Of a stretch of 64,000 bases of DNA, positions 4,575-57,537 are shown one piece after another. Made by a program: the position numbers and the translations under genes. Within the stretch, counting starts at the first letter, position 1. The number at the start of each line of letters is the position of its first letter. Below the pieces are notes generated by a model, which saw nothing but the letters and a program-made list of their open reading frames with translations, was not told the DNA's origin and ran no database searches. Origin of the DNA: Patescibacteria group bacterium (GTDB taxonomy: Bacteria > Patescibacteriota > Microgenomatia > Levybacterales > GWA1-39-11); assembly GCA_035549295.1 (NCBI GenBank), contig DASZRG010000036.1:13324-77323 (forward strand), read 5' to 3'.

Positions 4575-4694
4575 GTTGCCTTTTGACCTTGTCAAAAGGC
4601 AATCCTCATAAGCCTTAGAGGAGGATCATTGTTATTTTTAAAAATTAGAGGGGAGAGGAAGTAATTTGAAGTTTATTACTTTGCGAATTTCTCA

Positions 4695-6239
4695 CTATCT
4701 GTAGTGAACTAATTTATAGACCTTAAGAACTGAAACTGGCCACTCTCCTGCAATTTCCGCGCGGCCAAATCCTGCGACTTCCCACAAAGAATTACCAAGA
4801 GGTTGGCAGTTTAAATCTTCACAAACAATAAATAATTGATCTGTTACACTTTTCCTTTGCGGATCGACTCCTTCATACTGAATTGTCACAGGTGGTTTTC
4901 CTTCAACTTCAAAAATATATCTATACGCATGATCAGAATTTCCTCCTGTAATAAGAGCAAAATTAAATGGCTTATTACCCGCTTTATTCAAGATGAACTC
5001 CGAAATCTTTTTAACCTGAAGATACTGTTGATTACCAGGATATCTAAATGGGTAGCCTAGGAGATTTAGATAAATGAACAGAATAAAGAGAATAATAGTC
5101 GCATATCTCAGTGACTTTCTATCATAAAGATTGGACAGTAGATTACCAACGAGAAGGAACGGTAAAGGAAACATGAATTCAAAATAATAGTCATATATTG
5201 GCTTGTGATAAAACCCAAAAAGCACTACTCCAAAAAAAAGCCAAAACGAAAATAGAAGTTTTACTAATTTGTCTTTTATTTTTATTATTGAAAAGACGGA
5301 TGCTATCCCTAACACAACGGCCAAAACTCCCCAAAGGAATAATGCATTTTTTTCAACAGTGTAGGTCCTATCAGGTGGTGGATAATAAAGAACTAGTCGA
5401 GCGAAAATTCGGAAAAATACATCCTGGACTGTTTGAATAAAAGTCAAATGAGTTAGATCAGATGCGTGTGGATCACCATGCAATATGAAATTAAAAACCG
5501 TCCTCGTGTTAGGAAACCCGTGCTTTATTTCAAACAAAAGAAATGGCGACAAACCAATCAAAAAGCCAATGGCAAAACCTAGGTACTCTTTAGCAGTTTC
5601 ATAAACTATTTTTTTCTTGTTATTCAAAAAGTTTGCAGAAAGTATATAGACCGCTATGATTATTCCTACAAAAACCTCTATGTAATGGAGCTGAAAAGCT
5701 ATTCCGTAAATAAATCCTACCGATATGAATTTTCTAAAACTTGGCTTCTGAACATATTTGTATAAAAGATAAAGCATGACCATTGAAAAAAACGGCATAG
5801 GGTTTGGATTCCAAGATGATCTTGAGTATTCAATGACTAGAGGCGAAATGGAATATAAAAGTGCTGCAAATAAAGCTCCTTTTAAACCAATCCACTCTCT
5901 TCCAAATTTATAAATCAGAAAAACAGTTGCGACACTCAGAAGCGCGATCATTATTGCAGGACCAGTTGGATTGTAATTTGATAAAAGTAAAAAAGGGGCC
6001 ATCATGTAGTAATAGATGGGACCCGTAAAAAAGTCTGCCGCCGACGCGCGTGGACCCAAGAACGTTAGATGCCCATGAAGGATGTCTCTTACTATAAGAA
6101 CGTCTCGTCCTTCATCACCCAAAAAAGTTAAATAATCTTGAATTTTGTATATTCTAAAAAATGCAGCAATAAGGATGATTACACCGACAATAACAGCTAC
6201 ATAGTTCTTTGTAAAAAACTTGCGAATTTTAAGAAACAT
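4695..6239 (-). CDS. GT-C fold membrane glycosyltransferase (ArnT/PMT, GT39/GT83-like)
   Basis: 514 aa and polytopic. The N-terminal region (YLTFLGDEGRD, many TM helices) is typical of polyprenyl-phosphate-sugar dependent GT-C transferases. Confidence 0.65.
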   Translation of the reverse strand: MFLKIRKFFTKNYVAVIVGVIILIAAFFRIYKIQDYLTFLGDEGRDVLIVRDILHGHLTFLGPRASAADFFTGPIYYYMMAPFLLLSNYNPTGPAIMIALLSVATVFLIYKFGREWIGLKGALFAALLYSISPLVIEYSRSSWNPNPMPFFSMVMLYLLYKYVQKPSFRKFISVGFIYGIAFQLHYIEVFVGIIIAVYILSANFLNNKKKIVYETAKEYLGFAIGFLIGLSPFLLFEIKHGFPNTRTVFNFILHGDPHASDLTHLTFIQTVQDVFFRIFARLVLYYPPPDRTYTVEKNALFLWGVLAVVLGIASVFSIIKIKDKLVKLLFSFWLFFGVVLFGFYHKPIYDYYFEFMFPLPFLLVGNLLSNLYDRKSLRYATIILFILFIYLNLLGYPFRYPGNQQYLQVKKISEFILNKAGNKPFNFALITGGNSDHAYRYIFEVEGKPPVTIQYEGVDPQRKSVTDQLFIVCEDLNCQPLGNSLWEVAGFGRAEIAGEWPVSVLKVYKLVHYR

Positions 6240-6260
6240 AAAGAGGATTTATCCGACTCA

Positions 6261-7445
6261 TTATTTATCCTTCAAGTGATGCGTCTTCCAAATAATACGG
6301 TTGTAAATAAAATAATTTAACGGAATAACAAGTAAAATTATAGTTGGGAACAAGACTACAATTCGAGTCTTAAGCGACATTCCAAACAGCATTACATCTT
6401 CTCCCAAGAAATGGACGAATAAATAAACCGATAAAAATTGAATAAACACAGAAAGAAGAGTTGCTAAATTGAATTTTATCAATTTATGCATAAAATGCGA
6501 ATTCTGCTTAATGTGTTTTGTATCAGAGAATGTCCAAAAATTATTGAACATGAAGTTACATAGGATTGCCGCTTCGGCACCAAATCCTGCCGATAAACCG
6601 TCGCGAAGCGAAGCGATAACCGAAACAAAAAGAACATTGGCCGCAAACTCTTGGAAAACTAACTGAACGATAAAACCTGTTCCTCCTACAATTAGAAACT
6701 TTATGACTCTTTGCAATTCAGTAATCCTAGTAGTAATAACGAACGTAATAACTTGCATGATATACCCGATCGGAGCAATCTTTGAGTCGCCTAAACTTCT
6801 TTCCCCAAAATGGAAAGGAACTTCACCTATTTTGAATCCATCCCTGACAGCCTTATGCAGAAACGATATCTGAAAAATATACCCGCTAAATTTTGTGAGC
6901 TCATGTTTTTCCTTCAGAAATACTTCTTTTTTTAGAGCCCGATATCCACCAGTCCAATCGTGTATATAAAATCTCATAAAAACTGTTCTCACAAACAAAT
7001 TTGCAACGACTGAGAAAGCTTTTCTATGAAGCGGCCATTTAGCCGGAATTGATCCGCCATCACTATAGCGAGTACCGATTACCATATCGCATCCTTCATC
7101 AATTTTTTCCAAAAAATCAGGAATTTTTGCTGGGTCGTGCTGCAAATCAGCATCCATTTCAAAAACTACATCGGCGCCCATCTCTTCAATAGCAAAAGTC
7201 ATGGCGCGAATGTACGCTGCGCCCAACCCTTTTTTCTCTCCACTTGAAATCTCAATATTCTTGTACTTTTTAGCAAATGCCTCAACGGCTTCTGGAGTAC
7301 CATCCGGAGAATTATCATCTGCAACAAGGATGAACATCTGGTAGTTTTTTACCTGGGGGAAAACATCTTCTTCTATAATTGGAATTATTCTCTCGATATT
7401 CTCACGCTCTTTATACGTCGGTATGATAACAACTGCTTTGCTCAT
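6261..7445 (-). CDS. GT2 polyprenyl-phosphate glycosyltransferase (GtrB/DPM1/ArnC-like) fused to a GtrA-like C-terminal 4-TM domain
   Basis: IIPTYKE...DDNSPDGT...MDADLQHDP are GT2 family-2 DXD motifs. The C-terminal ~120 aa is hydrophobic and GtrA-like. It overlaps the uxs start by 1 nt. Confidence 0.75.
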   Translation of the reverse strand: MSKAVVIIPTYKERENIERIIPIIEEDVFPQVKNYQMFILVADDNSPDGTPEAVEAFAKKYKNIEISSGEKKGLGAAYIRAMTFAIEEMGADVVFEMDADLQHDPAKIPDFLEKIDEGCDMVIGTRYSDGGSIPAKWPLHRKAFSVVANLFVRTVFMRFYIHDWTGGYRALKKEVFLKEKHELTKFSGYIFQISFLHKAVRDGFKIGEVPFHFGERSLGDSKIAPIGYIMQVITFVITTRITELQRVIKFLIVGGTGFIVQLVFQEFAANVLFVSVIASLRDGLSAGFGAEAAILCNFMFNNFWTFSDTKHIKQNSHFMHKLIKFNLATLLSVFIQFLSVYLFVHFLGEDVMLFGMSLKTRIVVLFPTIILLVIPLNYFIYNRIIWKTHHLKDK

Positions 7446-8398
7446 TAGATTGAGGTCTTAAAGTATTCTATAGTTTTTGCCAACCCCGTATCAAGTTTTA
7501 TTTTAGGTTCAAAGCCAAATAACTCTTTTGCGTAAGCAATATCAGGTTTTCTTCTGTGTGGATCGTCCATAGGAAGATCTTCGTGAACAATCTTGGAAGA
7601 TGAGCCAACCATTTCTTTTATTTTACTTGCCAAATCAGCGATTGTATGCTCGTCAGGATTTCCCAAATTTATAACATAAAAGCCTGATTCCACATCAAGG
7701 CATCCTATCAATCCGGCAATTAAATCATCAACATAACAAAAACTTCTTGTCTGATCGCCATCTCCGTAGATTGTAATATCTTCATTTCTCAGCGCTTGGT
7801 TTATAAAATTTGAAACTACACGTCCATCGTCCTTTTGCATGCGTGTTCCATATGTATTGAATATTCTTATTACTCGAACATCTAATTTGTACTTTCTCGC
7901 GTATGCGGAACAGATAGCCTCGCCAAATCTTTTTCCCTCATCATAAACAGATCGCGGACCATTAGGATTGACATTTCCAAAATAATCTTCTTTCTGAGGT
8001 GAAACGGCGGGATCACCATAAATTTCCGAAGATGAAGCATAAACAAATTTAGCGTTTTTTTGATGTGCAAACTCTAAGGCATTCTTGGTCCCGACAGAAT
8101 TAACCATCAATGTCTCAATGGGATATGCAATATAACTCTTGGGGCTTTTTGCGTTCGGCGATGCAGGAGATGCCAAATGAAAAACAACATCCACCTGACC
8201 ATTTATACTAGGGAGCGAATGAATCAGGTCATGTTTTATAAATACAAAATTTGGATTTTCTAAAAATTTTTCAACGTTGCTTTCAGATCCTGTTAAAAAA
8301 TTGTCGATACATATTACTTTTTTACCTTCATTAAGAAGCCTTTCTACAAGATGCGATCCCACAAAACCAGCACCCCCCAATACCACTACGGTTGACAT
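7445..8398 (-). CDS. uxs: UDP-glucuronate decarboxylase (UDP-xylose synthase)
   Basis: It matches UXS motifs along its length (GGAGFVGSH, HLASPASP, YDEGKR, IFNTYGTRM, DGRVVSNFI.QAL) and is collinear with human UXS1 from memory. Confidence 0.85.
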   Translation of the reverse strand: MSTVVVLGGAGFVGSHLVERLLNEGKKVICIDNFLTGSESNVEKFLENPNFVFIKHDLIHSLPSINGQVDVVFHLASPASPNAKSPKSYIAYPIETLMVNSVGTKNALEFAHQKNAKFVYASSSEIYGDPAVSPQKEDYFGNVNPNGPRSVYDEGKRFGEAICSAYARKYKLDVRVIRIFNTYGTRMQKDDGRVVSNFINQALRNEDITIYGDGDQTRSFCYVDDLIAGLIGCLDVESGFYVINLGNPDEHTIADLASKIKEMVGSSSKIVHEDLPMDDPHRRKPDIAYAKELFGFEPKIKLDTGLAKTIEYFKTSI

Positions 8399-8456
8399 GG
8401 ATTAATTGTATCTAAAAAATGCCACAAATACTACGATAGGAAAAAGAAAATTGCAA

Positions 8457-8492
8457 GAAACTAGAGACTAGATATTAGATACTAGGAATTTC
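8457..8492. promoter_or_regulatory. CTAG-rich conserved ~33-bp motif, 59 nt upstream of the uxs start in the divergent uxs/gmd promoter region
   Basis: GAAACTAGAGACTAGATATTAGATACTAGGAATTTC, followed by AGTGATTAAG/AGTGATTAGG sub-motifs. Confidence 0.65.
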
Positions 8493-8580
8493 TAAGTGAT
8501 TAAGATTAAAGGAGTTAGTGATTAGGAGAATATCTTTTTACATATTAGATATTGCATATTACATATTATAAGGATGAACG

Positions 8581-8614
8581 TTTTTTATAATCTACAATTT
8601 TTTATAATCTACAA
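8581..8614. repeat. Perfect 17-bp tandem direct repeat (TTTTTTATAATCTACAA x2) in the uxs/gmd divergent promoter region
   Basis: Seen directly. Confidence 0.85.
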
Positions 8615-8731
8615 TATGTTATACATAATATCTAAGAAATAACTCTTGGATAACTACTTAATACAAGATACTCTTCACACTAATATCTCTATTGTTAAAG
8701 CACAAATCATTGTGTAAAATTAAATGAAATT

Positions 8732-9736
8732 ATGGCAAAGAAAGCTTTGATTATCGGTATTTCTTCACAAGATGGATCATATCTTGCTGATCTTCTTCTT
8801 GAAAAGGGGTACGATGTAACAGGAACTGTTCGACATACAACTAATTTTTATCAAGAGAATATTACTCACCTTTATGGAAAAGTAAAAATTGAAGCAGCGG
8901 ATCTTATTGATCTCGAAAGTCTTTCAAGTGTTGTTCGCAAATCAAAACCTGATGAGGTATACAATATCGCAGCCCAAAGCGTACCCGGTGACTCTTGGAC
9001 TCAACCTTTTTACACGGGTGAGGTAACTGCCCTTGGGCCAGTAAGAACACTTGAAGCAGTTCGCCATTTTGCACCTGATGCGCGTTTTTATCAAGCAACC
9101 TCGCGAGAAATATATGGAAATATTGAAGCAGACGCTGCTAATGAAACCACTTTAAGCGATGCCAACAATCCCTACGGTATAGCAAAAGCATATGCCCACA
9201 TGATGGTCCGTTGCTTTCGAGAATCCTACGGCATGTTCGCATGTGGAGGAATACTTTTTAACCACGAATCCCCCAGAAGAAGTCTTCATTTTGTCACGAG
9301 AAAAATTTCAGCTGGTGTTGCGTGTATAAAAAATAAAGTTAAAAATCCTCCTCTCAATGAACTTGGAGAACCTTTGGTCGATGCACAAGGAAAATTACAT
9401 CTTGGAAATCTTTCTGCAACTCGCGACTGGGGGTATGCAAAAGAATATGTCGAAGCCATGTGGCTTATGCTTCAAAATGATAAACCAAAAGATTATGTTA
9501 TAGGAACTAATACCTCATATACAGTTGAGGATGCATGCCGAATCGCATTCGAACATGTTGGACTGAATTACAAAGATCACGTTTACTCAAATGAAAAACT
9601 TCATAGGCCTACAGAAATCAAAGATTTGAAAGGCGACTATTCACTCGCTAAAAAAGAGCTCGGATGGGAACCTAAAACTAGTTTCAAAACACTCATGGAA
9701 TTAATGGTTGATGCTGACCTTGCAAGATTTAAATAA
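8732..9736 (+). CDS. gmd: GDP-mannose 4,6-dehydratase
   Basis: 334 aa with GISSQDGSYLA, ILFNHESPRR and the Gmd C-terminal pattern. Confidence 0.9.
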   Translation: MAKKALIIGISSQDGSYLADLLLEKGYDVTGTVRHTTNFYQENITHLYGKVKIEAADLIDLESLSSVVRKSKPDEVYNIAAQSVPGDSWTQPFYTGEVTALGPVRTLEAVRHFAPDARFYQATSREIYGNIEADAANETTLSDANNPYGIAKAYAHMMVRCFRESYGMFACGGILFNHESPRRSLHFVTRKISAGVACIKNKVKNPPLNELGEPLVDAQGKLHLGNLSATRDWGYAKEYVEAMWLMLQNDKPKDYVIGTNTSYTVEDACRIAFEHVGLNYKDHVYSNEKLHRPTEIKDLKGDYSLAKKELGWEPKTSFKTLMELMVDADLARFK

Positions 9737-9739
9737 GCA

Positions 9740-10699
9740 CTACTTCTGATTTCTCCAGTATTCGAGGGTTTCTTTTAGTGTTTGGTCTATTCCGAATTTT
9801 GTCTCCCATCCAGTCGTTTTTTTCATTTTTGAGTTATCACATAAAAGCTCAGGGACATCAATTGGCCTCATCAGACTTTCATCTTGCCTAATTTCAATTT
9901 TTGTGTCCGTGAAGGACAAAAGCTTATTAAGAACGTCTTCAATTTTATATGACTTCCCAGATCCAATATTGTATACCTCTCCTTCTTCACCTTTTTCCAA
10001 AATTTCGACATATGCAGATACCATATCACGAACATCTGTAAAATCACGCTTCGCAGTTAGATTTCCAACTTTCAAAACCGGCTCCATTTTGCCCTTTTCG
10101 ATGTCTGCAATTTTTTTTGCAAAGGCAGCAACGACAAATTGAGGCGATTGTCGTGGACCGATGTGATTGTATGGTCTAACTCTTATGATCGGAATTTTGT
10201 AAGATAGAAAGTACTGCAAGGCTAAAAAATCTTGGGCTAGCTTTGAAACGGCGTAAGGGTTGTTGGGCATAAGAGGAGCATTTTCATCGGTTGGAATATG
10301 ATCCGCATCTGTTGCCCCATACACTTCTGCCGAGGATACAACTAAAATTTTTGGGTTTATTTTTTGCGAGCGAACCTCCTCCAGTATATTTAAAAGAGAC
10401 GATACGTTACCATTTATATAACTTGCGGGATTTTCGAAACTTTGACCTGGCGATGCGAGTCCTGCAAGATGAAAAATTAAGTCAGGCGAAGATTCACTAA
10501 TAAAATTTTTGACGTCTGGTGAGTTAAGAAGATCTATTTTAGTTAAATTTATTTTGTCGGAAATTGAATCAACATTGATAAGACTATCATCAGTTAAATA
10601 ACTTCCAAAAATTTCAACTTCGGAAGAATTAAGTAAATGCTCTGCCAAAAAACTACCTGCAAAACCAGTAACTCCCGTTATGAGGACCTTCTTCTTCAT
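9740..10699 (-). CDS. rmd: GDP-4-keto-6-deoxy-D-mannose reductase (Rmd-like), producing GDP-D-rhamnose
   Basis: Strong block similarity to Pseudomonas Rmd (NPYAVSKLA, RPYNHIGPRQSPQFVVAAFAKKIADIEKG versus RPFNHIGPGQKDSFVIASAARQIARMKQG). It is convergent with gmd. Confidence 0.7.
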   Translation of the reverse strand: MKKKVLITGVTGFAGSFLAEHLLNSSEVEIFGSYLTDDSLINVDSISDKINLTKIDLLNSPDVKNFISESSPDLIFHLAGLASPGQSFENPASYINGNVSSLLNILEEVRSQKINPKILVVSSAEVYGATDADHIPTDENAPLMPNNPYAVSKLAQDFLALQYFLSYKIPIIRVRPYNHIGPRQSPQFVVAAFAKKIADIEKGKMEPVLKVGNLTAKRDFTDVRDMVSAYVEILEKGEEGEVYNIGSGKSYKIEDVLNKLLSFTDTKIEIRQDESLMRPIDVPELLCDNSKMKKTTGWETKFGIDQTLKETLEYWRNQK

Positions 10700-16554: not shown

Positions 16555-16599
16555 GTAGTAAAGTATCAAAGGTATCAAAAGTATCAGAGGTATCACGAG
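16555..16599. repeat. Tandem 9-bp repeat array, (A/G)GTATCA(A/G)AG x4
   Basis: AGTATCAAAGGTATCAAAAGTATCAGAGGTATCACGAG lies in the promoter region of the CAP-domain gene. A near-identical array is at 31021-31058. Confidence 0.8.
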
Positions 16600-16717
16600 C
16601 TAATCTCAATCGTTTAACGCTATAAGGTAAAAAAGTCTGTATCGGTTAAGTTACACGCTTAACGTAACCGAGTAAACGACCCGGGCAGCGTATCTGAAAA
16701 ACTACTTTCGATGGAGA

Positions 16718-16750
16718 TTTCCTAGTATCTAATATCTAGTCTCTAGTTTC
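16718..16750. promoter_or_regulatory. CTAG-rich conserved ~33-bp motif (reverse complement of the copy at 8457-8492)
   Basis: TTTCCTAGTATCTAATATCTAGTCTCTAGTTTC is the reverse complement of GAAACTAGAGACTAGATATTAGATACTAGGAAA at 8457. Confidence 0.7.
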
Positions 16751-16757
16751 TCGCATG

Positions 16758-23370: not shown

Positions 23371-23467
23371 GTCACTGCGAGCCCGAAGGGCGTGGCAGGC
23401 TCGCAGGCGAGATTGCTTCGTTTCACTGCACTTCGCTTCGCTCGTTTGTTCACTCGCAATGACAAGG
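23371..23467. repeat. Hairpin repeat of family 2 (GTCA[C/T]TGCGAG...CTCGCAATGAC termini)
   Basis: TGTCACTGCGAGCC...GGCTCGCAGGCGAGATTGCTTCG...CACTCGCAATGACAAGG. Its ends are inverted repeats, and it shares GAGATTGCTTC with the copies at 33922, 34236 and 50804. Confidence 0.75.
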
Positions 23468-23517
23468 ATTCTTAGATTACTTTTTCGAATTTGGTCTTGT
23501 CGTAAAAGTTGGAATTC

Positions 23518-23652
23518 GTCATTCTGAACCCCGATCCAATCGGGGAACCTTGTTTCAGAATCTCATACTTCGAGGTCCTGAATAACGAGCAATTTGTCAT
23601 GCTGAATTTATTTCAGCATCTCGTTGAGGTCCTGAAACAAGTTCAGGACGAC
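23518..23652. repeat. Composite hairpin repeat of family 1 (modules M1-M3), flanked by 32-bp imperfect direct repeats at 23481-23512 and 23669-23700
   Basis: GTCATTCTGAACCCCGATCCAATCGGGGAACCTTGTTTCAGAATCTC... is identical over ~58 nt to 33204-33261. The modules are xxCTGAA...TTCAGxx hairpins. Confidence 0.85.
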
Positions 23653-23659
23653 ATGATTT

Positions 23660-24748: not shown

Positions 24749-25005
24749 TTGAATGAAATTATTTGAAAGCCGTATTTTTTGATATCCTCCGGTTTCCAAA
24801 AAGGCATATCTTTTATTTTTCCAACGTACGTAACTTTCTTGACAACCTCACGGCCTGTATATTCATTTTTATCCTCATCCCATTCTTTTAAGATCAGAGT
24901 ATCGCCCTCACAACACTCAAAATCAGCAAGACGAAGATCATACGTTTTCTTACCTGACTTTATGAGTTCAAAATATTTCTTCCAAACCTTTTTCTCAATT
25001 CTCAT
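24745..25005 (-). CDS. DUF3850/ASCH-like small protein
   Basis: KVWKKYFELIKSGKKTYDLRLADF...GDTLILKEWDEDKNEYTGREVVKKVTYV matches the DUF3850 pattern. Confidence 0.55.
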   Translation of the reverse strand: MRIEKKVWKKYFELIKSGKKTYDLRLADFECCEGDTLILKEWDEDKNEYTGREVVKKVTYVGKIKDMPFWKPEDIKKYGFQIISFK

Positions 25006-25006
25006 A

Positions 25007-25042
25007 TTCTAGTCTCTAATATCTAGTATCTAGTTACTAGCT
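25007..25042. promoter_or_regulatory. CTAG-rich conserved motif copy, overlapping the last codons of prfB and abutting the DUF3850 start
   Basis: ATTCTAGTCTCTAATATCTAGTATCTAGTTACTAGC is related to the copies at 8457, 16718, 49325 and 53429. Confidence 0.65.
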
Positions 25043-26034
25043 TTCAATTCGGCGTCGATAAAAATGTCTATTTCACCATCGAGAACGGCTTCGGTATTGC
25101 TTGTTTCGGCACGCGTCCTGAGATCTTTTACCATTTGGTATGGATGCAAGACGTATGAACGAATCTGATTGCCCCAAGATGCGGGTTTGTAAACTCCCTT
25201 TAATTCTTTCTCTTGTTCGGCTGCTTTTTGCTGCTCAAGAGCCCAAAGCTTCGCTTTCAAGAGTTTCAATGCATACTCGCGATTTTGTCCCTGAAAGCGT
25301 TCAGTTTGACATGTTACGACAATACCAGTCGGTTTGTGTTTAAGCCTAACCGCAGATGAGACTTTCTGGACATTTTGCCCTCCATGAGATGAGGCGCGAT
25401 AAAAATCCCACTCCAAATCGTCTTCTTTTATTTCAGTATCCGTAGTTTCAATATCGGGAAGCACCTCAACTAAGGCAAAGGAGGTATGTCTCAAATTATC
25501 AGAATTAAAAGGCGATAATCTAACTAGGCGATGAGTACCTTGTTCACCCTTCATATATCCATAGACAAATTGGCCATCGACTGAAATTGTTGAACTTTTT
25601 ATACCAGCCTCTTCACCCTGTGTTTCATCGACTATTTCATACGACCAACCTTTTCTATCAAAAAATCGTAGATACATTCGCTTCAACATAGCGGCCCAGT
25701 CCATAGCATCGGCTCCTCCTTGACCAGCGTGAATTGTGACAAGCGCATTGTTTTTGTCATATGGTCCTGCCAAATAAAGATACATTTCCATATCACGCAA
25801 AAGCGTTTCGAGCCCAGTCGTGCTGTTTGAGTCGATATACTCCTGAAGCTTGGCTGCATCATCCACTTCTTTTTGTAGAAGTGCCATGAGTTTCATTTTG
25901 CGAGTAGCAGCTTGTGTATCTTTCCAAAAGTCAGGTCTCATGGACTCTGCTTCGATCTCTCGGATCTGAGTTTTTTTTGCTTCGATGTCGAGTTTGCCTA
26001 TCAAAATTTTGGCGCGCTCGATAAGATCGTTCAT
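25030..26034 (-). CDS. prfB: Peptide chain release factor 2
   Basis: The GGQ motif (SSHGGQNVQK) and the RF2-specific SPF motif (RLSPFNSDN) are present. The 334-aa frame is uninterrupted, so no programmed frameshift is used here. Confidence 0.9.
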   Translation of the reverse strand: MNDLIERAKILIGKLDIEAKKTQIREIEAESMRPDFWKDTQAATRKMKLMALLQKEVDDAAKLQEYIDSNSTTGLETLLRDMEMYLYLAGPYDKNNALVTIHAGQGGADAMDWAAMLKRMYLRFFDRKGWSYEIVDETQGEEAGIKSSTISVDGQFVYGYMKGEQGTHRLVRLSPFNSDNLRHTSFALVEVLPDIETTDTEIKEDDLEWDFYRASSHGGQNVQKVSSAVRLKHKPTGIVVTCQTERFQGQNREYALKLLKAKLWALEQQKAAEQEKELKGVYKPASWGNQIRSYVLHPYQMVKDLRTRAETSNTEAVLDGEIDIFIDAELKASN

Positions 26035-30999: not shown

Positions 31000-31020
31000 C
31001 TGAAATATCCCCGAGAGAAA

Positions 31021-31058
31021 AGTATCAAAGGTATCAAAAGTATCAAGAGTATCAAAGG
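31021..31058. repeat. Tandem 9-bp repeat array (second locus), AGTATCAAAGGTATCAAAAGTATCAAGAGTATCAAAGG
   Basis: Seen directly. It lies ~60 nt upstream of the ion-channel gene and matches the array at 16555-16599. Confidence 0.8.
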
Positions 31059-31116
31059 CTAATTTCTTTGTGTAAGATTGACTTGATTGGTCGTTTTCAT
31101 CAATAATTAAACTAAT

Positions 31117-33196: not shown

Positions 33197-33203
33197 TAAT
33201 TTC

Positions 33204-33320
33204 GTCATTCTGAACCCCGATCCAATCGGGGAACCTTGTTTCAGAATCTCATACTTCGAGGTCCTGAAACAAGTTCAGGACGACAATTGGAAATAGTCAT
33301 GCTGAATTTATTTCAGCATC
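33204..33320. repeat. Hairpin repeat of family 1 (modules M1-M2-M3)
   Basis: GTCATTCTGAACCCCGATCCAATCGGGGAACCTTGTTTCAGAATCTC + GTCCTGAAACAAGTTCAGGACGAC + GTCATGCTGAATTTATTTCAGCATC. Near-identical to 23518-23575. Confidence 0.85.
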
Positions 33321-33892: not shown

Positions 33893-33932
33893 CCTCGTCA
33901 TTGCGAGGGTTTGAAAAACCCGAAGCAATCTC
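33893..33932. repeat. Family-2 hairpin repeat, left inverted copy bracketing the GIY-YIG gene
   Basis: CCTCGTCATTGCGAGGGTTTGAAAAACCCGAAGCAATCTC. Its reverse-complement partner is at 34236-34280. Confidence 0.8.
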
Positions 33933-33944
33933 TATAATAAATTC

Positions 33945-34237
33945 GTGAATTCAAAACAATACTATGTATATATTTTGACGAATAAACTAAATACGGTTTT
34001 ATATACTGGTATAACAAACGACTTAATTAAGAGAGTTTATGAACACAAAAATAAATTAGTTTCGGGATTTACTGAAAGATATAATGTTAACAAGCTCGTT
34101 TACTATGAAATCGCCGAGGACGCATAGGAGCAATAAAACGAGAGAAACAAATCAAAGGTGGTTCAAGGGGTAAGAAAAACGATTTGATTACAAAATTTAA
34201 TCCCGATTGGAAAGATTTATATGATGACCTTGCATGA
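33945..34237 (+). pseudogene. GIY-YIG nuclease family (UPF0213/YhbQ-like, ~97 aa), interrupted by a frameshift near 34122-34129
   Basis: Frame A reads MNSKQYYVYILTNKLNTVLYTGITNDLIKRVYEHK...YYEIAEDA*. In the -1 frame it continues GAIKREKQIKGGSRGKKNDLITKFNPDWKDLYDDLA*, which matches the conserved C-terminal half of this family. Confidence 0.6.
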
Positions 34238-34280
34238 GATTGCTTCGTCAGTCGCAAGCTCCTTCCTCGCAATGACAAAG
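34236..34280. repeat. Family-2 hairpin repeat, right inverted copy (GAGATTGCTTCG...CCTCGCAATGACAAAG)
   Basis: It is the reverse complement of the termini of the copy at 33893-33932. It starts at the GIY-YIG stop and ends 8 nt before the mazG-like stop. Confidence 0.8.
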
Positions 34281-49324: not shown

Positions 49325-49358
49325 TAGTGATTAGAAACTAGATATTAGTGACTAGGAG
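49325..49358. promoter_or_regulatory. CTAG-rich conserved motif copy upstream of the SDR gene
   Basis: TAGTGATTAGAAACTAGATATTAGTGACTAGGAGAAA. Confidence 0.6.
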
Positions 49359-49463
49359 AAATAAATAGAGATAAAAGATATGAGATATAAGACTAAAGAT
49401 AAGTGATGAAAAAAAATTTGATTTTGGATTATTTTAAAAAAAGGATTTATTTACGAATATCTT

Positions 49464-50588
49464 TTATTTAGTCTCTGAAGGAGTTGATTCGTCAGAAGCA
49501 CTCATGTGAAGATCGGATGTAACTTTCTGCCATGCTTTTTTGTATGCTTCAGGTTCTGCTTTCTTAAACTCTTTAAAAACTTCTGTAAACGTTTTTAGTG
49601 TATTCTGCCTCTCGGTGATTACTTGATTTGCTGCTTGAAGCCTATTTGACAACCAATCAATCGCGATAATATCTGACGGGGCATCTGCTGCCATGTCTCT
49701 TGAAACCTCAGAGTCTCTTTTGTAATTTGCATATTGGTCAACGTTCATATCAAGCACTACCCCCATAAGCCCTTCGTGTTGAAACTGATCTTTTCTTCTT
49801 TGAAATTCTTCTTCTGATATAACATTGTTACCTTGCGTAAAGCTCTCATAATCTACTTCAACACCAAAAAGTGCACTTTTTGAAGTAACAAAACTTGCAT
49901 TGACCCGTGGAGCTCCAAGATAAACTATTCGTTTTATATCAAGCAATTTTTTACCAGCCTCTTCCCCAATAATTCGCTTCATATTACCTTCTACTCTCGC
50001 GCCGGCTCCGTCCACGTCATACATTTGCTGCCCTGACTCTAATGCTCGTGCGTCTGCAAATCCGCGAGGTGTATCGACAGATGCTTCGCCTGTTCTGTAT
50101 TGAATAGTTCTAAAAAAGTGTAGTTTTCCTTCCCGATCTGTGGCATACGGAGCAAGTATCATATGTGGACCTTCTGCAACCGTGGGTCGCTCAAACCCTG
50201 ATTGAATATTATCTGAGTTAACACCCTGCACCATCGCAGTAACTTTTTGGTTGGAATTTCCAATAGAAGCAACTCCTAGTAACTCAGTGGTCACACCTTG
50301 ACCTGCCAGTTGATCCTGTAATTCCGCTAGACTCAAAACTTTAAGGTTACCATCTTCTCGTACAATAAACTCTTCAAAGTGAGAATTTAAATCAACACTT
50401 CCTCCCAAAGTTCCACGCGGCTTTCCCGCGATACCCTCCATATATTTAGCAAGTGGTACAATATCCAGTTTGCCTGCCATCATCTCATTTACTTTATCAA
50501 GAGCACCTTGGTTAGCAAGTTCGTGCTGTTCACCTACTGGCTTACTGTGCTCTATTGCCGGAAGTACGTCTGCCCCTATTTCGGTCAT
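49464..50588 (-). CDS. Hypothetical protein
   Basis: 374-aa ORF with no recognised family and higher GC than CPR-like neighbours. Confidence 0.35.
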   Translation of the reverse strand: MTEIGADVLPAIEHSKPVGEQHELANQGALDKVNEMMAGKLDIVPLAKYMEGIAGKPRGTLGGSVDLNSHFEEFIVREDGNLKVLSLAELQDQLAGQGVTTELLGVASIGNSNQKVTAMVQGVNSDNIQSGFERPTVAEGPHMILAPYATDREGKLHFFRTIQYRTGEASVDTPRGFADARALESGQQMYDVDGAGARVEGNMKRIIGEEAGKKLLDIKRIVYLGAPRVNASFVTSKSALFGVEVDYESFTQGNNVISEEEFQRRKDQFQHEGLMGVVLDMNVDQYANYKRDSEVSRDMAADAPSDIIAIDWLSNRLQAANQVITERQNTLKTFTEVFKEFKKAEPEAYKKAWQKVTSDLHMSASDESTPSETK

Positions 50589-50674
50589 AATTTTAATATT
50601 CTAACACAGAAATTCGTTTTTAAATGGAGTCACAGATTATATAAAATCTTAAATGATTCACCGTGAAGGACTTT

Positions 50675-53425
50675 TTATGGAATTATAGGGTAGTGGCATT
50701 TCTTCCATTTTTTACCAGAACCACAAGGACAGGGGTCGTTGCGGCCGAGTTTTCTGGCGGAGCCAGATCCAGCTTCGCTGGATTTTTCCTTTGAATCGTT
50801 GCTGAGATTGCTTTGTCGCTTCGCTCCTCGCAATGACGAGGGTTTTTTTTCTTCTCCTACCTCTGATTCGGGGGTGTTGACTGATACGTTTTGGCGGACT
50901 TCGACTTGTGGAACAATTTCTGCGAGATTTACTCTAAATGCGCGGTGAGATATCTCATCGTCGATTGAATCTACAAGTCGTTCAAACATATTGAACGATT
51001 CATTTTTATACTCGATAAGCGGATCACGCTGTCCATAACCACGAAGTCCTATACCAGTCCTGAGATCTTCCATAGCTGTTAGGTGGTCCATCCAGAGATT
51101 ATCTATAGTTGATAGGGATATTGCTTTATAAACTTGGGCCAAATGTTCTCGACTAAACTGCTTCTCCCAAGTATCGACAAGCTGTTTGGCAAGACCAACC
51201 AAGAAATCTGTTACCTCCTCAGCAGAATGGAATTGCTCTGATTGTTCATATAGATGTTTTCTAGAGTGCTCATCGAATGGAATGATGTTTGCAAACTCTT
51301 CGATCATATTTTTTCTACCATCTTCGACCATTTCAGAGTACAAATTCATTTGGACAATACTTGCAATTGATGCCTCGACCTTACTAAGAGTTGAGTCAAT
51401 AATATCTTCTTTGTTGGCAACTATCGCGCGGCGATTATCGTAAATTATTTCTCTTTGTTTGTTGAGAACATCGTCGTAGTCAAGAAGATTTTTTCGAATT
51501 TCAAAATTGTATCCTTCGACTTTTACTTGAGCCTGTTCAATAACTCTTGAAACGAGACCATGAGCCAAAGGTTGGTCTTCTGGGAAATTAAATCGCGTCA
51601 TAAGACCTGAAATCTGATCTCCTCCAAAAACGCGCATGAGATCATCTTCAAGAGATACAATAAACACAGATCGTCCCGGATCTCCTTGACGACCTGCACG
51701 CCCACGAAGCTGATTGTCGATCCTTCGAGACTCGTGCTTTTCAGTACCAATAACACATAGTCCGCCCTTTTTAAGAACTTCATCGTGCTCTTTTTCCCAT
51801 TTTTTCATGTGTTCGGCAAATCTTTTCTCGCCAGCTTTTCCTGAATACTCGACATCGAATTTGGATGGAGGTTGACCACCAAGAATAATATCAACTCCAC
51901 GACCTGCCATGTTGGTCGCAACTGTGACGGCATTGACTCGGCCCGCTTCACGAATAATAGCAGCTTCTTTTACATGGTTTTTCGCATTTAGGACTTCGTG
52001 TTTTATTCCGCGACGCTTTAGAGCTTCCGAAATAGTTTCGTTCTTATCAATTGATGTTGTACCAACAAGAACTGGTTGACCTTTTTTGTGAGCCTCCTCA
52101 ATCTGGTCAACAACGGCTTTTACTTTTGCATGATTTGTTTTGTAAATTTGGTCTCCCTGATCGTCACGAACCATCTCGCGGTGTGTCGGAATAACTATGA
52201 CGTCGAGTTTGTAAATTTTCTGGAACTCCTCTGCCTCTGTTACAGCAGTTCCTGTCATACCACCAAGTTTTTCATACATTCTGAAGTAATTCTGCAGAGA
52301 GACTGTTGCGAGAGTTTTGGACTCTTGTTGAATCGGTACATTTTCTTTTGCTTCAATCGCTTGGTGAAGACCCTCAGACAGTCTTCTACCTTCAAGAAGA
52401 CGTCCTGTAAATTCATCAACTAAAATAACTTGATTATCACGAACTATATAGTCTCGGTCTTTGTGAAAAAGCGTGTTTGCTTTGAGCGCTGCCTCGATGT
52501 GATAGACTGTGTCAAAATCTTTTTCATAAATATCTTTTACACCATAAAGCTTTTCAACTTTTTCAATTCCTTGATCTGTAAGATGAGCCGTACGGGACTT
52601 CTCATCTATTTTATAATCGGTCTCGGACGTCAAGCGATCGACCATATTGGCATATTCGTAATATTTTTGAGATGGCGTTGCATCAGGCATGGAGATAATA
52701 TGAGGAGTACGTGCCTCATCGATAAGAACTGAGTCCACCTCATCGATAACCGCGAAGTAATGATCGGTCTGCACCATCTGAGACTCTTCAGAAACCATAT
52801 TGTCGCGAAGATAATCAAATCCGAATTCTGAATTTATCCCATAAACAATATTGGCTTGATAGGCTTCACGACGCGATATCGGCTTCAAGTGGACGAGTCG
52901 ATAGTCAGATGCTTGATTGTCAGTAAATGTAGGATCGTAAAGAAATGAAGTCTCTGAAATAATAGATGAAACTGTCATTCCCAAGAAACTAAAAACAGCA
53001 CCCATCCATCCAGCATCACGACGAGCGAGATAATCGTTAACAGTAACGAGATGAACCGTGGCACCAGTCAAAGCATTGAGATACAGTGCAGGAACTGCTG
53101 ACAGCGTCTTTCCTTCTCCCGTCTTTTGCTCCGCAACTGCACCTCTTGCAAGAGCTGTTGCCGCCATGAGCTGAACATCATATGGCCTCATACCAACGCT
53201 TCTATGAGCTGCCTCACGAACGAGAGCAAATGCTTCTGGTAAAATTAGGAATATGCTTTCGCCTTCAGCAATTCTCTTTTTGAATTCTTCAGTTTTTTTG
53301 GGGAAGTCAGAATCTTTTAGTTTCTTTGTTTTTTCCTCCAGCGCATTTATTTGATCAACAATAGGAGCAAGTTTTTTTACTTCGCGGTCATTTGAGTCAA
53401 ATAGTTTTGTGAGACTTCCAAACAT
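50675..53425 (-). CDS. secA: Preprotein translocase ATPase SecA
   Basis: 916 aa with DEAD motor motifs (MATGEGKT-like GEGKTL, DEVDS), a C-terminal zinc finger CPCGSGKKWKKCH, and a repeat-derived insertion in the C-terminal linker. Confidence 0.95.
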   Translation of the reverse strand: MFGSLTKLFDSNDREVKKLAPIVDQINALEEKTKKLKDSDFPKKTEEFKKRIAEGESIFLILPEAFALVREAAHRSVGMRPYDVQLMAATALARGAVAEQKTGEGKTLSAVPALYLNALTGATVHLVTVNDYLARRDAGWMGAVFSFLGMTVSSIISETSFLYDPTFTDNQASDYRLVHLKPISRREAYQANIVYGINSEFGFDYLRDNMVSEESQMVQTDHYFAVIDEVDSVLIDEARTPHIISMPDATPSQKYYEYANMVDRLTSETDYKIDEKSRTAHLTDQGIEKVEKLYGVKDIYEKDFDTVYHIEAALKANTLFHKDRDYIVRDNQVILVDEFTGRLLEGRRLSEGLHQAIEAKENVPIQQESKTLATVSLQNYFRMYEKLGGMTGTAVTEAEEFQKIYKLDVIVIPTHREMVRDDQGDQIYKTNHAKVKAVVDQIEEAHKKGQPVLVGTTSIDKNETISEALKRRGIKHEVLNAKNHVKEAAIIREAGRVNAVTVATNMAGRGVDIILGGQPPSKFDVEYSGKAGEKRFAEHMKKWEKEHDEVLKKGGLCVIGTEKHESRRIDNQLRGRAGRQGDPGRSVFIVSLEDDLMRVFGGDQISGLMTRFNFPEDQPLAHGLVSRVIEQAQVKVEGYNFEIRKNLLDYDDVLNKQREIIYDNRRAIVANKEDIIDSTLSKVEASIASIVQMNLYSEMVEDGRKNMIEEFANIIPFDEHSRKHLYEQSEQFHSAEEVTDFLVGLAKQLVDTWEKQFSREHLAQVYKAISLSTIDNLWMDHLTAMEDLRTGIGLRGYGQRDPLIEYKNESFNMFERLVDSIDDEISHRAFRVNLAEIVPQVEVRQNVSVNTPESEVGEEKKPSSLRGAKRQSNLSNDSKEKSSEAGSGSARKLGRNDPCPCGSGKKWKKCHYPIIP
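50804..50847. repeat. Family-2 hairpin repeat embedded in-frame in the secA C-terminal linker
   Basis: GAGATTGCTTTGTCGCTTCGCTCCTCGCAATGACGAGGG encodes PSSLRGAKRQSNL. An adjacent ATCCAGCTTCGCTGGAT hairpin sits at 50772-50788. Confidence 0.7.
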
Positions 53426-53428
53426 AAG

Positions 53429-53466
53429 TTAGTGACTAGATACTAGATATTAGTAACTAGGAATTG
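53429..53466. promoter_or_regulatory. CTAG-rich conserved motif copy, 3 nt upstream of the secA start codon
   Basis: TTAGTGACTAGATACTAGATATTAGTAACTAGGAATTG. Confidence 0.65.
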
Positions 53467-53536
53467 AGGTTATATTTTAGCACATCCCAGGCTCAAATAC
53501 TAAATGCGAATTGCTAGTTTAAATTCTTACTAAAGA

Positions 53537-53790
53537 GTGTCATTCTGAACCCCCATTTAATCGGGGGAACCTTGATTCAGAATCTCTAATCGAGACCCCG
53601 GATCCCGTGAGCTTCGCTCATGGTAAACAAGTCTGGAGTGACAAGTTTCTATTCGGGTTATTCGGAGTAAACATTCGGATAAATTCGCGTCTAAATGAAT
53701 TCGCCCCCCACTAATTACTCAGTGAGGGGCAGAATACCATTTGATCAATTGGTATTCCGAATTAAATCGGAATCCAACCGTAAACTAGTT
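53537..53790. repeat. String of family-1 and family-3 hairpin modules in the 650-bp secA-serS spacer
   Basis: It contains GTCATTCTGAACCCCCATTTAATCGGGGGAACCTTGATTCAGAATCTC, GAGACCCCGGA...TCTGGAGTGACAAG, TTCGGGTTATTCGGA, CCCCCCACTAATTACTCAGTGAGGGG, GAATACCATTTGATCAATTGGTATTC, and ATTCCGAATTAAATCGGAAT. Confidence 0.8.
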
Positions 53791-55969: not shown

Positions 55970-56596
55970 ATGATTAAGGCTGTTATTTTCGACGTTGACG
56001 GTGTGTTAATTGATTCTTTTGAAGCAAATTTAAGATTTTTCGAAAACTTAATGGTAAAAGCGGGCTATCCAAAACCTAAGCGTGAGGAATTTCATGAGTT
56101 ATTCCATCTGAGTATGATGGATACAATAAAAGCGCTAACGAAATTAAATTCGGAAGAAGAATTACGAAAAATTTGGAATATGGGAAAAAGTAGAGAGGTC
56201 AACTACCCCGTCGATCTATTAGCTACGCCTGAGGGAATGGAAAAAACAATACTTGATCTCAATAAAAATTATACGCTTGGAATTGTATCCAACAGAGTCA
56301 AAGAAAGTGTTTATGAGGCACCAAGGCTTGCAAAACTAAAAGATCATTTTAAATCAACAATTACATATGAGGATACGATAAATCATAAACCAAACCCTGA
56401 ACCACTTTTACTTGCAGCGAGCGAACTAGATATTGAACCACGAAGTATCGTTTATGTTGGAGATGCGGAAAATGATCTGATAGCAGGAAAAGCAGCTGGA
56501 ATGAAAGTCATAGCATATTCACCCAACAAATATAAAAACACGGACGCTCAAGCTTTGTTATTCACCGATCTTCCTGCAATAATTAGAACATTATGA
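55970..56596 (+). CDS. HAD-superfamily hydrolase (beta-phosphoglucomutase/phosphatase-like)
   Basis: IKAVIFDVDGVLIDS (motif I), VSNR, and GDAENDLIAGKAAG (motif IV). Confidence 0.75.
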   Translation: MIKAVIFDVDGVLIDSFEANLRFFENLMVKAGYPKPKREEFHELFHLSMMDTIKALTKLNSEEELRKIWNMGKSREVNYPVDLLATPEGMEKTILDLNKNYTLGIVSNRVKESVYEAPRLAKLKDHFKSTITYEDTINHKPNPEPLLLAASELDIEPRSIVYVGDAENDLIAGKAAGMKVIAYSPNKYKNTDAQALLFTDLPAIIRTL

Positions 56597-57537
56597 TAAA
56601 CATTCAAATACCAAATTGGCAAGAACATGAACTACTCGACACCGGAAACGGCCGAAAGCTTGAGCGTTTTGGAAAATATATTCTAAATCGCATTGAACCA
56701 CAAGCAACGTGGCATCAAACTCTGAGCGAGTCAGAATGGCACAAAGCAGATGCTGTTTTTCGAAAAGCTAGTGACCGCGGTGGAAATTGGGAACTAAAAA
56801 AACAAATCCCAGGGAAGTGGACAATGTCATATGAAAGTCTGAAACTTGAACTTCGACTTACACCATTTGGACATGTGGGAGTTTTTCCGGACCAGTCAAA
56901 TCAGTGGGAATGGATTTCAAATAAAATCAAACAAAGAAGTCATCCTGAACCCCGATTGAATCGGGGGAACCTTGTTTCAGGATCTCAAGCTGAGACCCCG
57001 GAACAAGTCCGGGGTGACAAAGCTGTAAATGTTTTGAGTTTGTTTACTTATACTGGTGCTTCGACTCTAGAGGCGGCGGCGGCGGGCGCTCATGTAACTC
57101 ATGTTGATGCATCAAAACCAGCTATAACTTGGGCACGAGAAAACCAGAGAATATCAGGACTAACTGACAAACCTATTCGCTGGATCCCTGAGGATGCTTT
57201 AAAGTTTGTAAAACGAGAAGTAAGACGAAATTCACGCTACGACGCGATCATAATGGACCCTCCGAAATTTGGACGAGGAACTCAAGGAGAAGTTTGGAAA
57301 TTTGAAGAATCATTTCCAGAACTTATAGACTATTGTCGACAGATACTTTCAGATAACCCACTGTTCATACTTACGACTGCATATGCGATCCCTGTCTCGT
57401 CAATTTCTCTTGCAAATATGATCTCAGATGCAACTCGTAAGCTAAAAGGGAATATTGAGTATGGAGAACTAGCACTTAAACAAACATCAAACGAAAAACT
57501 TTTACCAACCGCCATTTTCTGTAAATGGGAGCGTTAA
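56593..57537 (+). CDS. SAM-dependent methyltransferase of the RlmI/YccW type, carrying an in-frame hairpin-repeat insertion
   Basis: VLSLFTYTGASTLEAA is motif I-like. IIMDPPKFGRG is the DPPxF motif. It makes an ATGA overlap with the upstream HAD gene. Confidence 0.5.
   Translation: MINIQIPNWQEHELLDTGNGRKLERFGKYILNRIEPQATWHQTLSESEWHKADAVFRKASDRGGNWELKKQIPGKWTMSYESLKLELRLTPFGHVGVFPDQSNQWEWISNKIKQRSHPEPRLNRGNLVSGSQAETPEQVRGDKAVNVLSLFTYTGASTLEAAAAGAHVTHVDASKPAITWARENQRISGLTDKPIRWIPEDALKFVKREVRRNSRYDAIIMDPPKFGRGTQGEVWKFEESFPELIDYCRQILSDNPLFILTTAYAIPVSSISLANMISDATRKLKGNIEYGELALKQTSNEKLLPTAIFCKWER
56941..57024. repeat. Family-1 hairpin repeat (M1 + GACCCCGGAACAAGTCCGGGGTGAC hairpin) inserted in-frame within the methyltransferase CDS
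   Basis: CATCCTGAACCCCGATTGAATCGGGGGAACCTTGTTTCAGGATCTC... is 84 nt with no stop codon and encodes HPEPRLNRGNLVSGSQAETPEQVRGDKA. It is near-identical in reverse complement to 61664-61714. Confidence 0.8.

Follow-up and report, generated by a model that had tools for sequence, protein, structure and literature searches.

How does a hairpin repeat of a kind found mostly between genes come to be read as part of an essential protein? This question is raised by the secA gene in a 64,000-nucleotide stretch of Patescibacteria DNA (contig DASZRG010000036.1, positions 13,324 to 77,323; hereafter the window, to whose first letter all coordinates refer). The gene (50675..53425, minus strand) is an intact open reading frame (ORF) of 916 amino acids (aa); its product has the same sequence (100% identity) as a SecA from a metagenome-assembled genome of Patescibacteria, and the nearest SecA relatives are annotated as Levybacteria. 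An initial annotation, made from the sequence alone, had described two in-frame hairpin modules in the linker between the SecA motor and its C-terminal zinc finger, and both are located there, at 50804-50837 and 50767-50783. The first is confirmed as a true member of a dispersed family, the CGTC-tagged palindromic repeats or Ssn-related motifs (SRM), which are associated with the nuclease gene ssn; for the second, family membership is not supported. We consider it likely that the first is a singleton of a selfish or semi-domesticated repeat that persists in a permissive linker without a required role in SecA.

In the window protein, Pfam assigned residues 619-832 to the SecA_SW (Wing/Scaffold) domain and residues 895-913 to the SEC-C zinc-binding motif, and the variable flexible linker between them (residues 833-894; 50744..50929, minus strand) houses both modules. 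This linker is of low complexity and Lys-rich (AAA/AAG codons), is presumably disordered, is hypervariable across the 120 closest homologues, and could not be aligned between relatives. The first module is a single in-frame copy of 34 nucleotides (nt) that we annotated as an SRM at 50804..50838 on the minus strand. On the coding strand, it consists of the tag C-GTC, a palindrome made up of ATTGC, GAGGA, GCGAAGC, GACAA and GCAAT, and a final CTC. The plus-strand sequence GAGATTGCTTTGTCGCTTCGCTCCTCGCAATGAC at 50804-50837 corresponds to cGTCATTGCGAGGAGCGAAGCGACAAAGCAATCTC on the coding strand and encodes PSSLRGAKRQSNL, residues 862-874; the peptide derived from the copy itself is SSLRGAKRQSNL, P862 being encoded just upstream. 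Downstream of the insert, the gene stays in frame and retains the zinc finger CPCGSGKKWKKCH.

The copy carries an unpaired (C/T)GTC tag directly 5′ of the palindrome (C-GTC-ATTGC...), a stem that starts with complementary A-T, and a C directly 3′ of the palindrome within a short tail (ATTGC...GCAAT-CTC). Its ends are identical to those of three intergenic copies in the window: the pattern GTCATTGCGAG-N(4-34)-RAAGCAATCTC matched four times (at 23409, 33897, 34236 and in the secA copy), compared to 0.00 matches in 100 shuffles, and the 11-mer GTCATTGCGAG with at most one mismatch matched five times where 0.71 matches were expected.

To place the copy within a wider family, we collected 80 loci encoding homologues of the window nuclease and counted the repeats at their flanks. 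A forward GTCATTGCGA...AGCAATC copy was found within 200 nt upstream of ssn in 49 of them and a reverse copy within 200 nt downstream in 38, with both flanks present in 35; the commonest length classes of these repeats are 26 nt and 32 nt. A covariance model was then built from 63 ssn-flanking repeats of other genomes, with no window sequence included. Under this model, the secA copy ranked top in the window (44.5 bits, E ~1.3e-9), ahead of the two copies flanking the window's own ssn gene and the copy at 23409. The inner helix is supported by covariation in the 63 foreign copies, as all five pairs change on both sides (score 0.143 versus 0.062 in shuffles) and 85.7% of the cells are paired, a share that drops to 21-52% if the partner is slid; the outer stem carries no covariation information, because the collecting pattern fixed it.

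The secA copy also matches a recurring sequence of the 32-nt class, GTCATTGCGAGGAGCGAAGCGACGAAGCAATC, at 33 of 34 bases, and this sequence was seen beside ssn in loci with Anaerolineaceae, Nitrospiraceae and Alphaproteobacteria in their record titles. The sole mismatch is a change of G24 to A, at a position that is G in 33 of the 34 copies of this length class. As a DNA hairpin, the secA copy is weak (z = -0.35), the minimum-energy fold pairing CCTCG of the 5′ flank with CGAGG. The claim that the first module is a dispersed-family copy absorbed in frame was thus borne out by the model score and by the shared ends, to which the comparison with close relatives given below can be added.

The window holds one copy of the partner gene, an ssn-type single-domain GIY-YIG nuclease gene at 33945..34237 on the plus strand. 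It matches Pfam PF01541 (E = 7e-16), and tblastn matches are split over two reading frames by a frameshift near 34122-34130, making it a probable pseudogene; it is a candidate member of cd10448, the family of ssn genes. The closest solved structure to the nuclease is 1zg2, a UPF0213 protein, with a weak match (E = 0.009). A forward repeat copy lies just upstream of the gene (33896..33932, plus strand, 41.6 bits) and a reverse copy overlaps its stop codon (34236..34277, minus strand, 42.4 bits), both with the tag outward, a layout that matches that of the homologous loci. Homologues 60-73% identical to the window nuclease were found in Cyanobacteria, Chloroflexi, Nitrospirae, Elusimicrobia, Firmicutes, Proteobacteria and several Patescibacteria, and the occurrence of the same flanks in very many phyla suggests horizontal spread of the repeat-ssn-repeat unit. 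Because the local ssn is broken and the conserved G of the secA copy is mutated, this copy may now be decaying.

This family has been described before, a point missing from the initial annotation, as was the partner nuclease gene with its broken copy in the window. In the work of Chenal et al. (2025), who introduced the name SRM, the Neisseria repeat CGTCATTCCCGCG...GCGGGAATCY and related repeats (including NTS/dRS3) were shown to flank ssnA (PMC11893778). Its product SsnA, a GIY-YIG protein of 94 aa, binds the repeat in its folded form and exclusively when the DNA is single-stranded, and cleavage falls a few nucleotides 5′ of the GTC tag. In the assays of that study, cutting depended most on the three bases that precede the palindrome, and SsnA binding on the C that follows it; the system was characterised in Neisseria and Wolbachia (PMC11893778). 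Like SRM, the window repeats are oriented hairpins with a (C/T)GTC tag, an AT(T)-starting stem and a C after the palindrome, are multi-copy and mostly intergenic, and include a pair of inverted copies around a single-domain GIY-YIG gene of roughly 95 aa. They differ in their host, the Patescibacteria being a phylum that is not mentioned in the main text of that study (PMC11893778), in the frameshifted ssn, and in belonging to a variant that lies outside the published search string; an action of the nuclease on the window copies is putative.

Under the name of CGTC-tagged repetitive extragenic palindromes (REPs), Di Nocera, De Gregorio and Rocco had defined the same type of element in 2013, including dRS3 and the Rickettsia elements RPE-4 and RPE-6 (PMC3733652). 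Their elements often form inverted dimers and occasionally lie within genes, where they encode short peptides (20-30 aa for dimers), and in-frame palindromic elements in Rickettsia genes are summarised in the same work (PMC3733652); the partner enzyme was not then known. The window repeats share the CGTC or TGTC tag, the A-T start of the stem, the 3-nt unpaired tail, the inverted dimers and the occasional intragenic units. The published REPs have stems of 8-9 base pairs (bp), loops of 4-5 nt and a CCA tail (PMC3733652), whereas the secA-type variant has a composite stem; short CTGAA-type copies of the window fit that description (8-bp stem, 5-nt loop) but have the tail CTC. In those parts of the supplementary files of PMC3733652 that were available to us, secA is not among the intragenic targets.

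Two other systems invite comparison. The REPs and REPINs that accompany RAYT tyrosine transposases (IS200/IS605-like) are likewise short hairpins, with doublets resembling the flanks of the enzyme gene minus the gene and an enzyme that recognises folded single-stranded DNA. However, the tag here is GTC and not GTAG, the partner is a GIY-YIG hydrolase and not an HUH/Y1 transposase, and no cut-and-paste chemistry is known for it; the ssn locus has neither a GTAG tag nor a flanking Y1 (HUH) transposase gene, although not every ORF of the window was scanned for RAYT. Palindromic elements inserted in frame in protein-coding genes of Rickettsia were reportedly described by Ogata et al. in Science in 2000 and by Claverie and Ogata in 2003. 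As with those elements, the window insert is in frame, leaves the gene intact (essential genes included), is absent from orthologues and lies in a tolerant loop or linker. It is much shorter than RPE-1 (34 nt versus ~100-150 bp) and occurs in another phylum, and, unlike the Rickettsia elements, different variants have repeatedly hit the same linker or loop in related lineages.

Across the window, we counted 19 copies of the family, 16 of which lie within the 9.4% of the sequence outside long ORFs; the remaining 3 of 19 are intragenic, as opposed to the 2% reported for the SRM of N. meningitidis. These elements are single hairpins of 27-56 nt that share the C/T-GTC tag (with a pyrimidine, C or T, before GTC in 13 of the 19), the AT-starting stem, the C after the palindrome and the CTC tail. 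The variant seen here combines a short outer stem of 5 bp with a purine-rich internal loop and an inner hairpin that varies. The fourth copy with the ends of the secA copy (23409..23464, minus strand, 36.2 bits) is intergenic and belongs to a repeat array at 23371-23653. Inverted doublets occur at 33203-33285, 53538-53646 and 56938-57019, and the second of these (53538..53646, plus strand), an intergenic doublet 113-221 nt upstream of the secA start codon, shows that the family is active around secA. An Rfam scan of the whole window at gathering thresholds returned zero hits. Neither a target-site duplication nor a shared target motif was seen at the 16 copies inspected with flanks; with no such duplication, and the element being a single hairpin, an assignment to miniature inverted-repeat transposable elements was rejected.

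The initial annotation proposed a comparison of SecA tails, and held that conservation of the stretch across distant relatives lacking the repeat elsewhere would argue for native linker; this was not what the sequences showed. The three closest relatives (P0002-P0004, ~80% identical) lack the segment, and the window SecA is 7-11 residues longer than they are (916 aa versus 905-909 aa). Moreover, four-fold degenerate sites among the compared genomes are saturated (33-45% identical) while the repeat ends keep 11 of 11 and 8 of 9 bases; these ends therefore cannot be old native linker sequence. In all, 116 of the 120 closest SecA homologues have no copy in their linker.

The other homologues of this set do, which gives an estimated frequency of 4 in 120. 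Besides the window protein, these are P0005 (locus L001, GTCATTGCGAGGAGTATCGCGACGAAGCAATCC), P0026 (locus L002, GTCATTGCGAGCGAAGCGAAGCAATCTT) and P0104 (locus L005, GTCATTGCGAGGAGCATCGCGACGAAGCAATCC), whose copies score 40-45 bits under the family model. Each of the four copies lies on the sense strand, and one frame is common to all. For every repeat-bearing SecA, the nearest neighbours of full length have no copy, the window and P0005 pair excepted, and parsimony on a neighbour-joining tree requires at least three gains. The window and P0005 proteins are sisters in this tree; their copies sit at the same codon offset, differ in their inner loops and are identical at 28 of 34 positions, compared to 41% at four-fold sites, so that they may represent either one older insertion kept near the family sequence or two separate hits. 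No further repeat-bearing SecA tails came from a protein search with the 90-aa tail or from an exhaustive HMMER search of 1.84 billion representatives, both of which returned mainly short SEC-C fragments.

The frame used in secA (SLRGAKRRSNL) has a mean hydropathy of -1.23 and a charge of +4, where the linker has means of -1.53 and +2.9. An attempt to measure frame preference from repeats lying in open frames of at least 250 aa at the 80 ssn loci was uninformative, as GC-rich genomes give long spurious frames across repeat arrays.

A second coding case supports the claim of the initial annotation that the family has colonised further coding regions. The gene for an S-adenosylmethionine-dependent RNA methyltransferase (56593..57537) contains an in-frame repeat doublet (56938..57019, plus strand), composed of a forward copy, GTCATCCTGAAC...CAGGATCTC, and a reverse copy, GAGACCCCGG...GGGGTGAC. 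The doublet encodes ~27 aa at the junction to the catalytic domain and ends just before the domain match at residue 143, and the catalytic domain after it is intact. In the orthologue of a close relative within a syntenic region (locus L003, 5599-6468), a gap of 26 aa falls exactly at the doublet. A third relative (L207) carries a single secA-type copy in the same inter-domain loop (4691-4719), in another frame that gives VIANAVKQS. The same loop was therefore seen in three states, empty in L003, with one copy in L207 and with a doublet of two other variants in the window.

The 22.7 kb syntenic stretch of L003 contains no repeat copies, and the sequenced stretches of L003, L207 (11.9 kb) and L208 (18.2 kb) have almost no intergenic ones, L207 retaining its one intragenic copy. 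Coding copies may outlast intergenic ones.

The second module did not fare as the first. It is a perfect 7-bp hairpin with a GAA loop (50767..50783; ATCCAGC-GAA-GCTGGAT on the coding strand; ATCCAGCTTCGCTGGAT), and, as the initial annotation stated, the stem-loop encodes SEAGSGS, within SSEAGSGS at residues 882-889. It folds well as DNA (z = -4.1). Perfect hairpins of at least 7 bp number 45 in the window against ~25 in shuffles, and with ~0.05 of them expected in a linker of the size of that of SecA, this hairpin alone is not clearly beyond chance. It shares with the family a GCGAAGC core and an AT-starting stem but has no GTC tag, and the family model did not report it even at E = 10. Its 18-mer occurs in several unrelated conserved contexts in a metagenome scan; GTC precedes it in 1 of 120 occurrences, as chance would give, and a family variant was therefore rejected. 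An unrelated palindrome of local origin, in a linker under no constraint, is the most likely reading of the second hairpin, and the statement that an essential gene absorbed repeat copies in its tail holds for the first module but is unsupported for this one.

Perfect hairpins outside the family were enriched in the SecA linkers of seven relatives, with 3 in 684 nt of linker compared to 6 in the remaining 18,015 nt of gene sequence (P ~0.002). They include ATTCAAATGGGAATTTGAAT in L002, which follows the repeat copy of that locus by ~10 nt, and CCTGCCTGCCGGCAGGCAGG and TCCGCCAGCCGGCGGA in L208 (gene 5453-8200). Unconstrained linkers may gather palindromes in general, which gives the second hairpin no tie to the family.

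Several other features of these linkers and of the window were recorded. The conserved codons of the LGRNDPC motif (CTCGGnCGCAATGAC, 50701-50722, also in L001 and L005) lie ~75 nt downstream of the insert and are similar to the reverse repeat end, CTCGCAATGAC; as a targeting cue, this resemblance showed no correlation with the presence of an insert in the DNA of five genomes, a sample too small to judge any such link, and was treated as a coincidence. Low-complexity, repeat-like peptides are present in the SecA linkers of P0003 (L207, gene 7372-10089), P0019, P0013 and P0028 (EDRKQKTENRKQKTED, KTEDRRQK...KQKTEDG, KADSPLAEK and NRKSQIANRN); 12-mers from the P0003 and P0021 linkers did not recur elsewhere in their own contigs, that of P0003 being 11.9 kb long. 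A second dispersed family, rich in CTAG and stop codons (TAGTGACTAGATACTAGATATTAGT...), occurs at 8452-8488, 16719-16755, 25001-25043, 49325-49375 and 53426-53468. It sits upstream of genes, with one copy abutting the secA start codon, and could be a promoter or leader element. Finally, two arrays, at 16557-16607 and 31016-31066, share 84% identity; each holds four GTATCA motifs at a spacing of 9 nt, lies 50-100 nt from a gene start and resembles an array of binding sites.

Explanations that do not involve an inserted repeat fit these data poorly. That the segment is native linker sequence resembling the repeat by chance or convergence draws on the LGRNDPC codons, which illustrate that short resemblances to the repeat do occur in secA. 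With a 33/34 match to a sequence shared across phyla, no pattern matches expected by chance, a model E-value of ~1e-9, and closest relatives that lack the segment in an otherwise unalignable linker, we regard this as almost certainly wrong. An assembly artefact, namely a chimeric join at a repeat, deserves thought because the source is metagenome-assembled and short dispersed repeats can mislead assemblers. Yet the 34-nt insert is shorter than a read, frame and zinc finger are intact, the identical protein is recorded on two contigs, and three assemblies from other samples have a similar insert in the same linker, making an artefact highly improbable.

The hairpins could alternatively be intrinsic terminators of antisense transcription entering the 3′ end of secA. 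Six terminator-like sites were found on the plus strand in 50300-51300, where 1.1 were expected, and both modules (within 50753-50852) score as such (50765-50785 followed by TTCCTTTGAA, and 50825-50842 followed by TTTTTTTTCT). The runs of T, however, are the complement of the Lys-rich codons (AAA/AAG) and are an expected by-product of them; no gene or significant promoter drives the plus strand here, with one promoter-like site against 1.8 expected, and relatives without the modules keep the same gene order. We find a terminator role very unlikely.

For the origin of the insert, we propose the following scenario. The family would have expanded in this Patescibacteria lineage to ~19 copies in 64 kb, nearly all intergenic, its spread possibly helped by Ssn, which could nick single-stranded DNA 5′ of the tag and so trigger host repair or copying, or by some other route. 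Inverted doublets would be the two flanks of an ssn unit whose gene was lost, much as REPINs relate to RAYT units. An intragenic copy would survive only if its length keeps the frame, the frame has no stop codon and the protein tolerates the peptide; the choice of frame would reflect selection. Such a permissive site would be the linker that joins the SecA motor to the zinc finger, the hydrophilic +4 frame resembling the linker itself, and the copy would persist as 12-13 extra residues that are probably neutral for SecA.

Several observations weigh against this scenario. The movement step is one that we only infer, because to our knowledge no transposition or copying mechanism exists for these repeats, and Ssn is a hydrolytic nuclease and not a transposase. 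The sole ssn copy within the window is frameshifted. Since the linkers of relatives do not align with one another, neither a target-site duplication nor an exact insertion boundary can be defined. The shared frame of all four SecA copies is not predicted by a purely neutral model, and if the window and P0005 copies are one old insertion, their identity relative to neutral sites would point to constraint or gene conversion and away from neutrality. In addition, the published degenerate SRM string, HGTCWYN(0-2)YYVSBRHN(0-5)WNVSBRGN(0-2)RNCYNB, which was built from 29 genomes (PMC11893778), matched nothing in the window, the secA copy included. The string is a search aid and not a definition, and surveys relying on it would miss copies of the window type.

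These observations also bear on the alternative that selection maintains the repeat in the SecA linker or that the linker is a hot spot to which it is targeted, for instance as a functional Ssn site that limits replacement of secA by incoming single-stranded DNA, or as a preferred insertion site. The common strand and frame of the four SecA copies, the equal codon offset and high identity of the window and P0005 copies in sister proteins, and the colonisation of the methyltransferase loop by two different variants can all be read in this way, and transformation with repeat-bearing DNA is less efficient in Neisseria owing to Ssn and its repeats (PMC11893778). On the other hand, nearly all of the closest homologues do without a copy, the window copy is substituted at a position that is otherwise almost invariant in its length class, and the local ssn is broken. 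A shared frame would also be expected from filtering for a hydrophilic, basic peptide, and gene conversion among copies could hold the ends identical without any function. Selection or targeting at SecA thus appears unlikely to us.

We find about as unlikely its broader form, in which repeats would be recurrently targeted to, or selectively kept in, both the SecA linker (on the same strand and in the same frame) and the methyltransferase loop, and held near the consensus by selection or gene conversion, as Ssn cutting sites in essential genes. Such sites might, for example, keep incoming single-stranded DNA from replacing these genes in a bacterium reliant on DNA uptake.

With a selfish or semi-domesticated repeat in a permissive linker as the favoured explanation, the finding does not reveal a new mechanism, and both the family and its in-frame insertion were already known. 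The novelty lies in the host phylum, in a variant that the published string does not cover, in SecA being among the targets, and in permissive sites having been hit more than once. The Ssn repeat system is thereby extended to Patescibacteria. For annotation, it accounts for odd SLRGAKRRSNL-type peptides seen repeatedly among metagenome-predicted proteins. The inserts in SecA and in the methyltransferase are natural examples of a selfish hairpin repeat becoming protein sequence, useful for studying the filtering of insertions by permissive sites.

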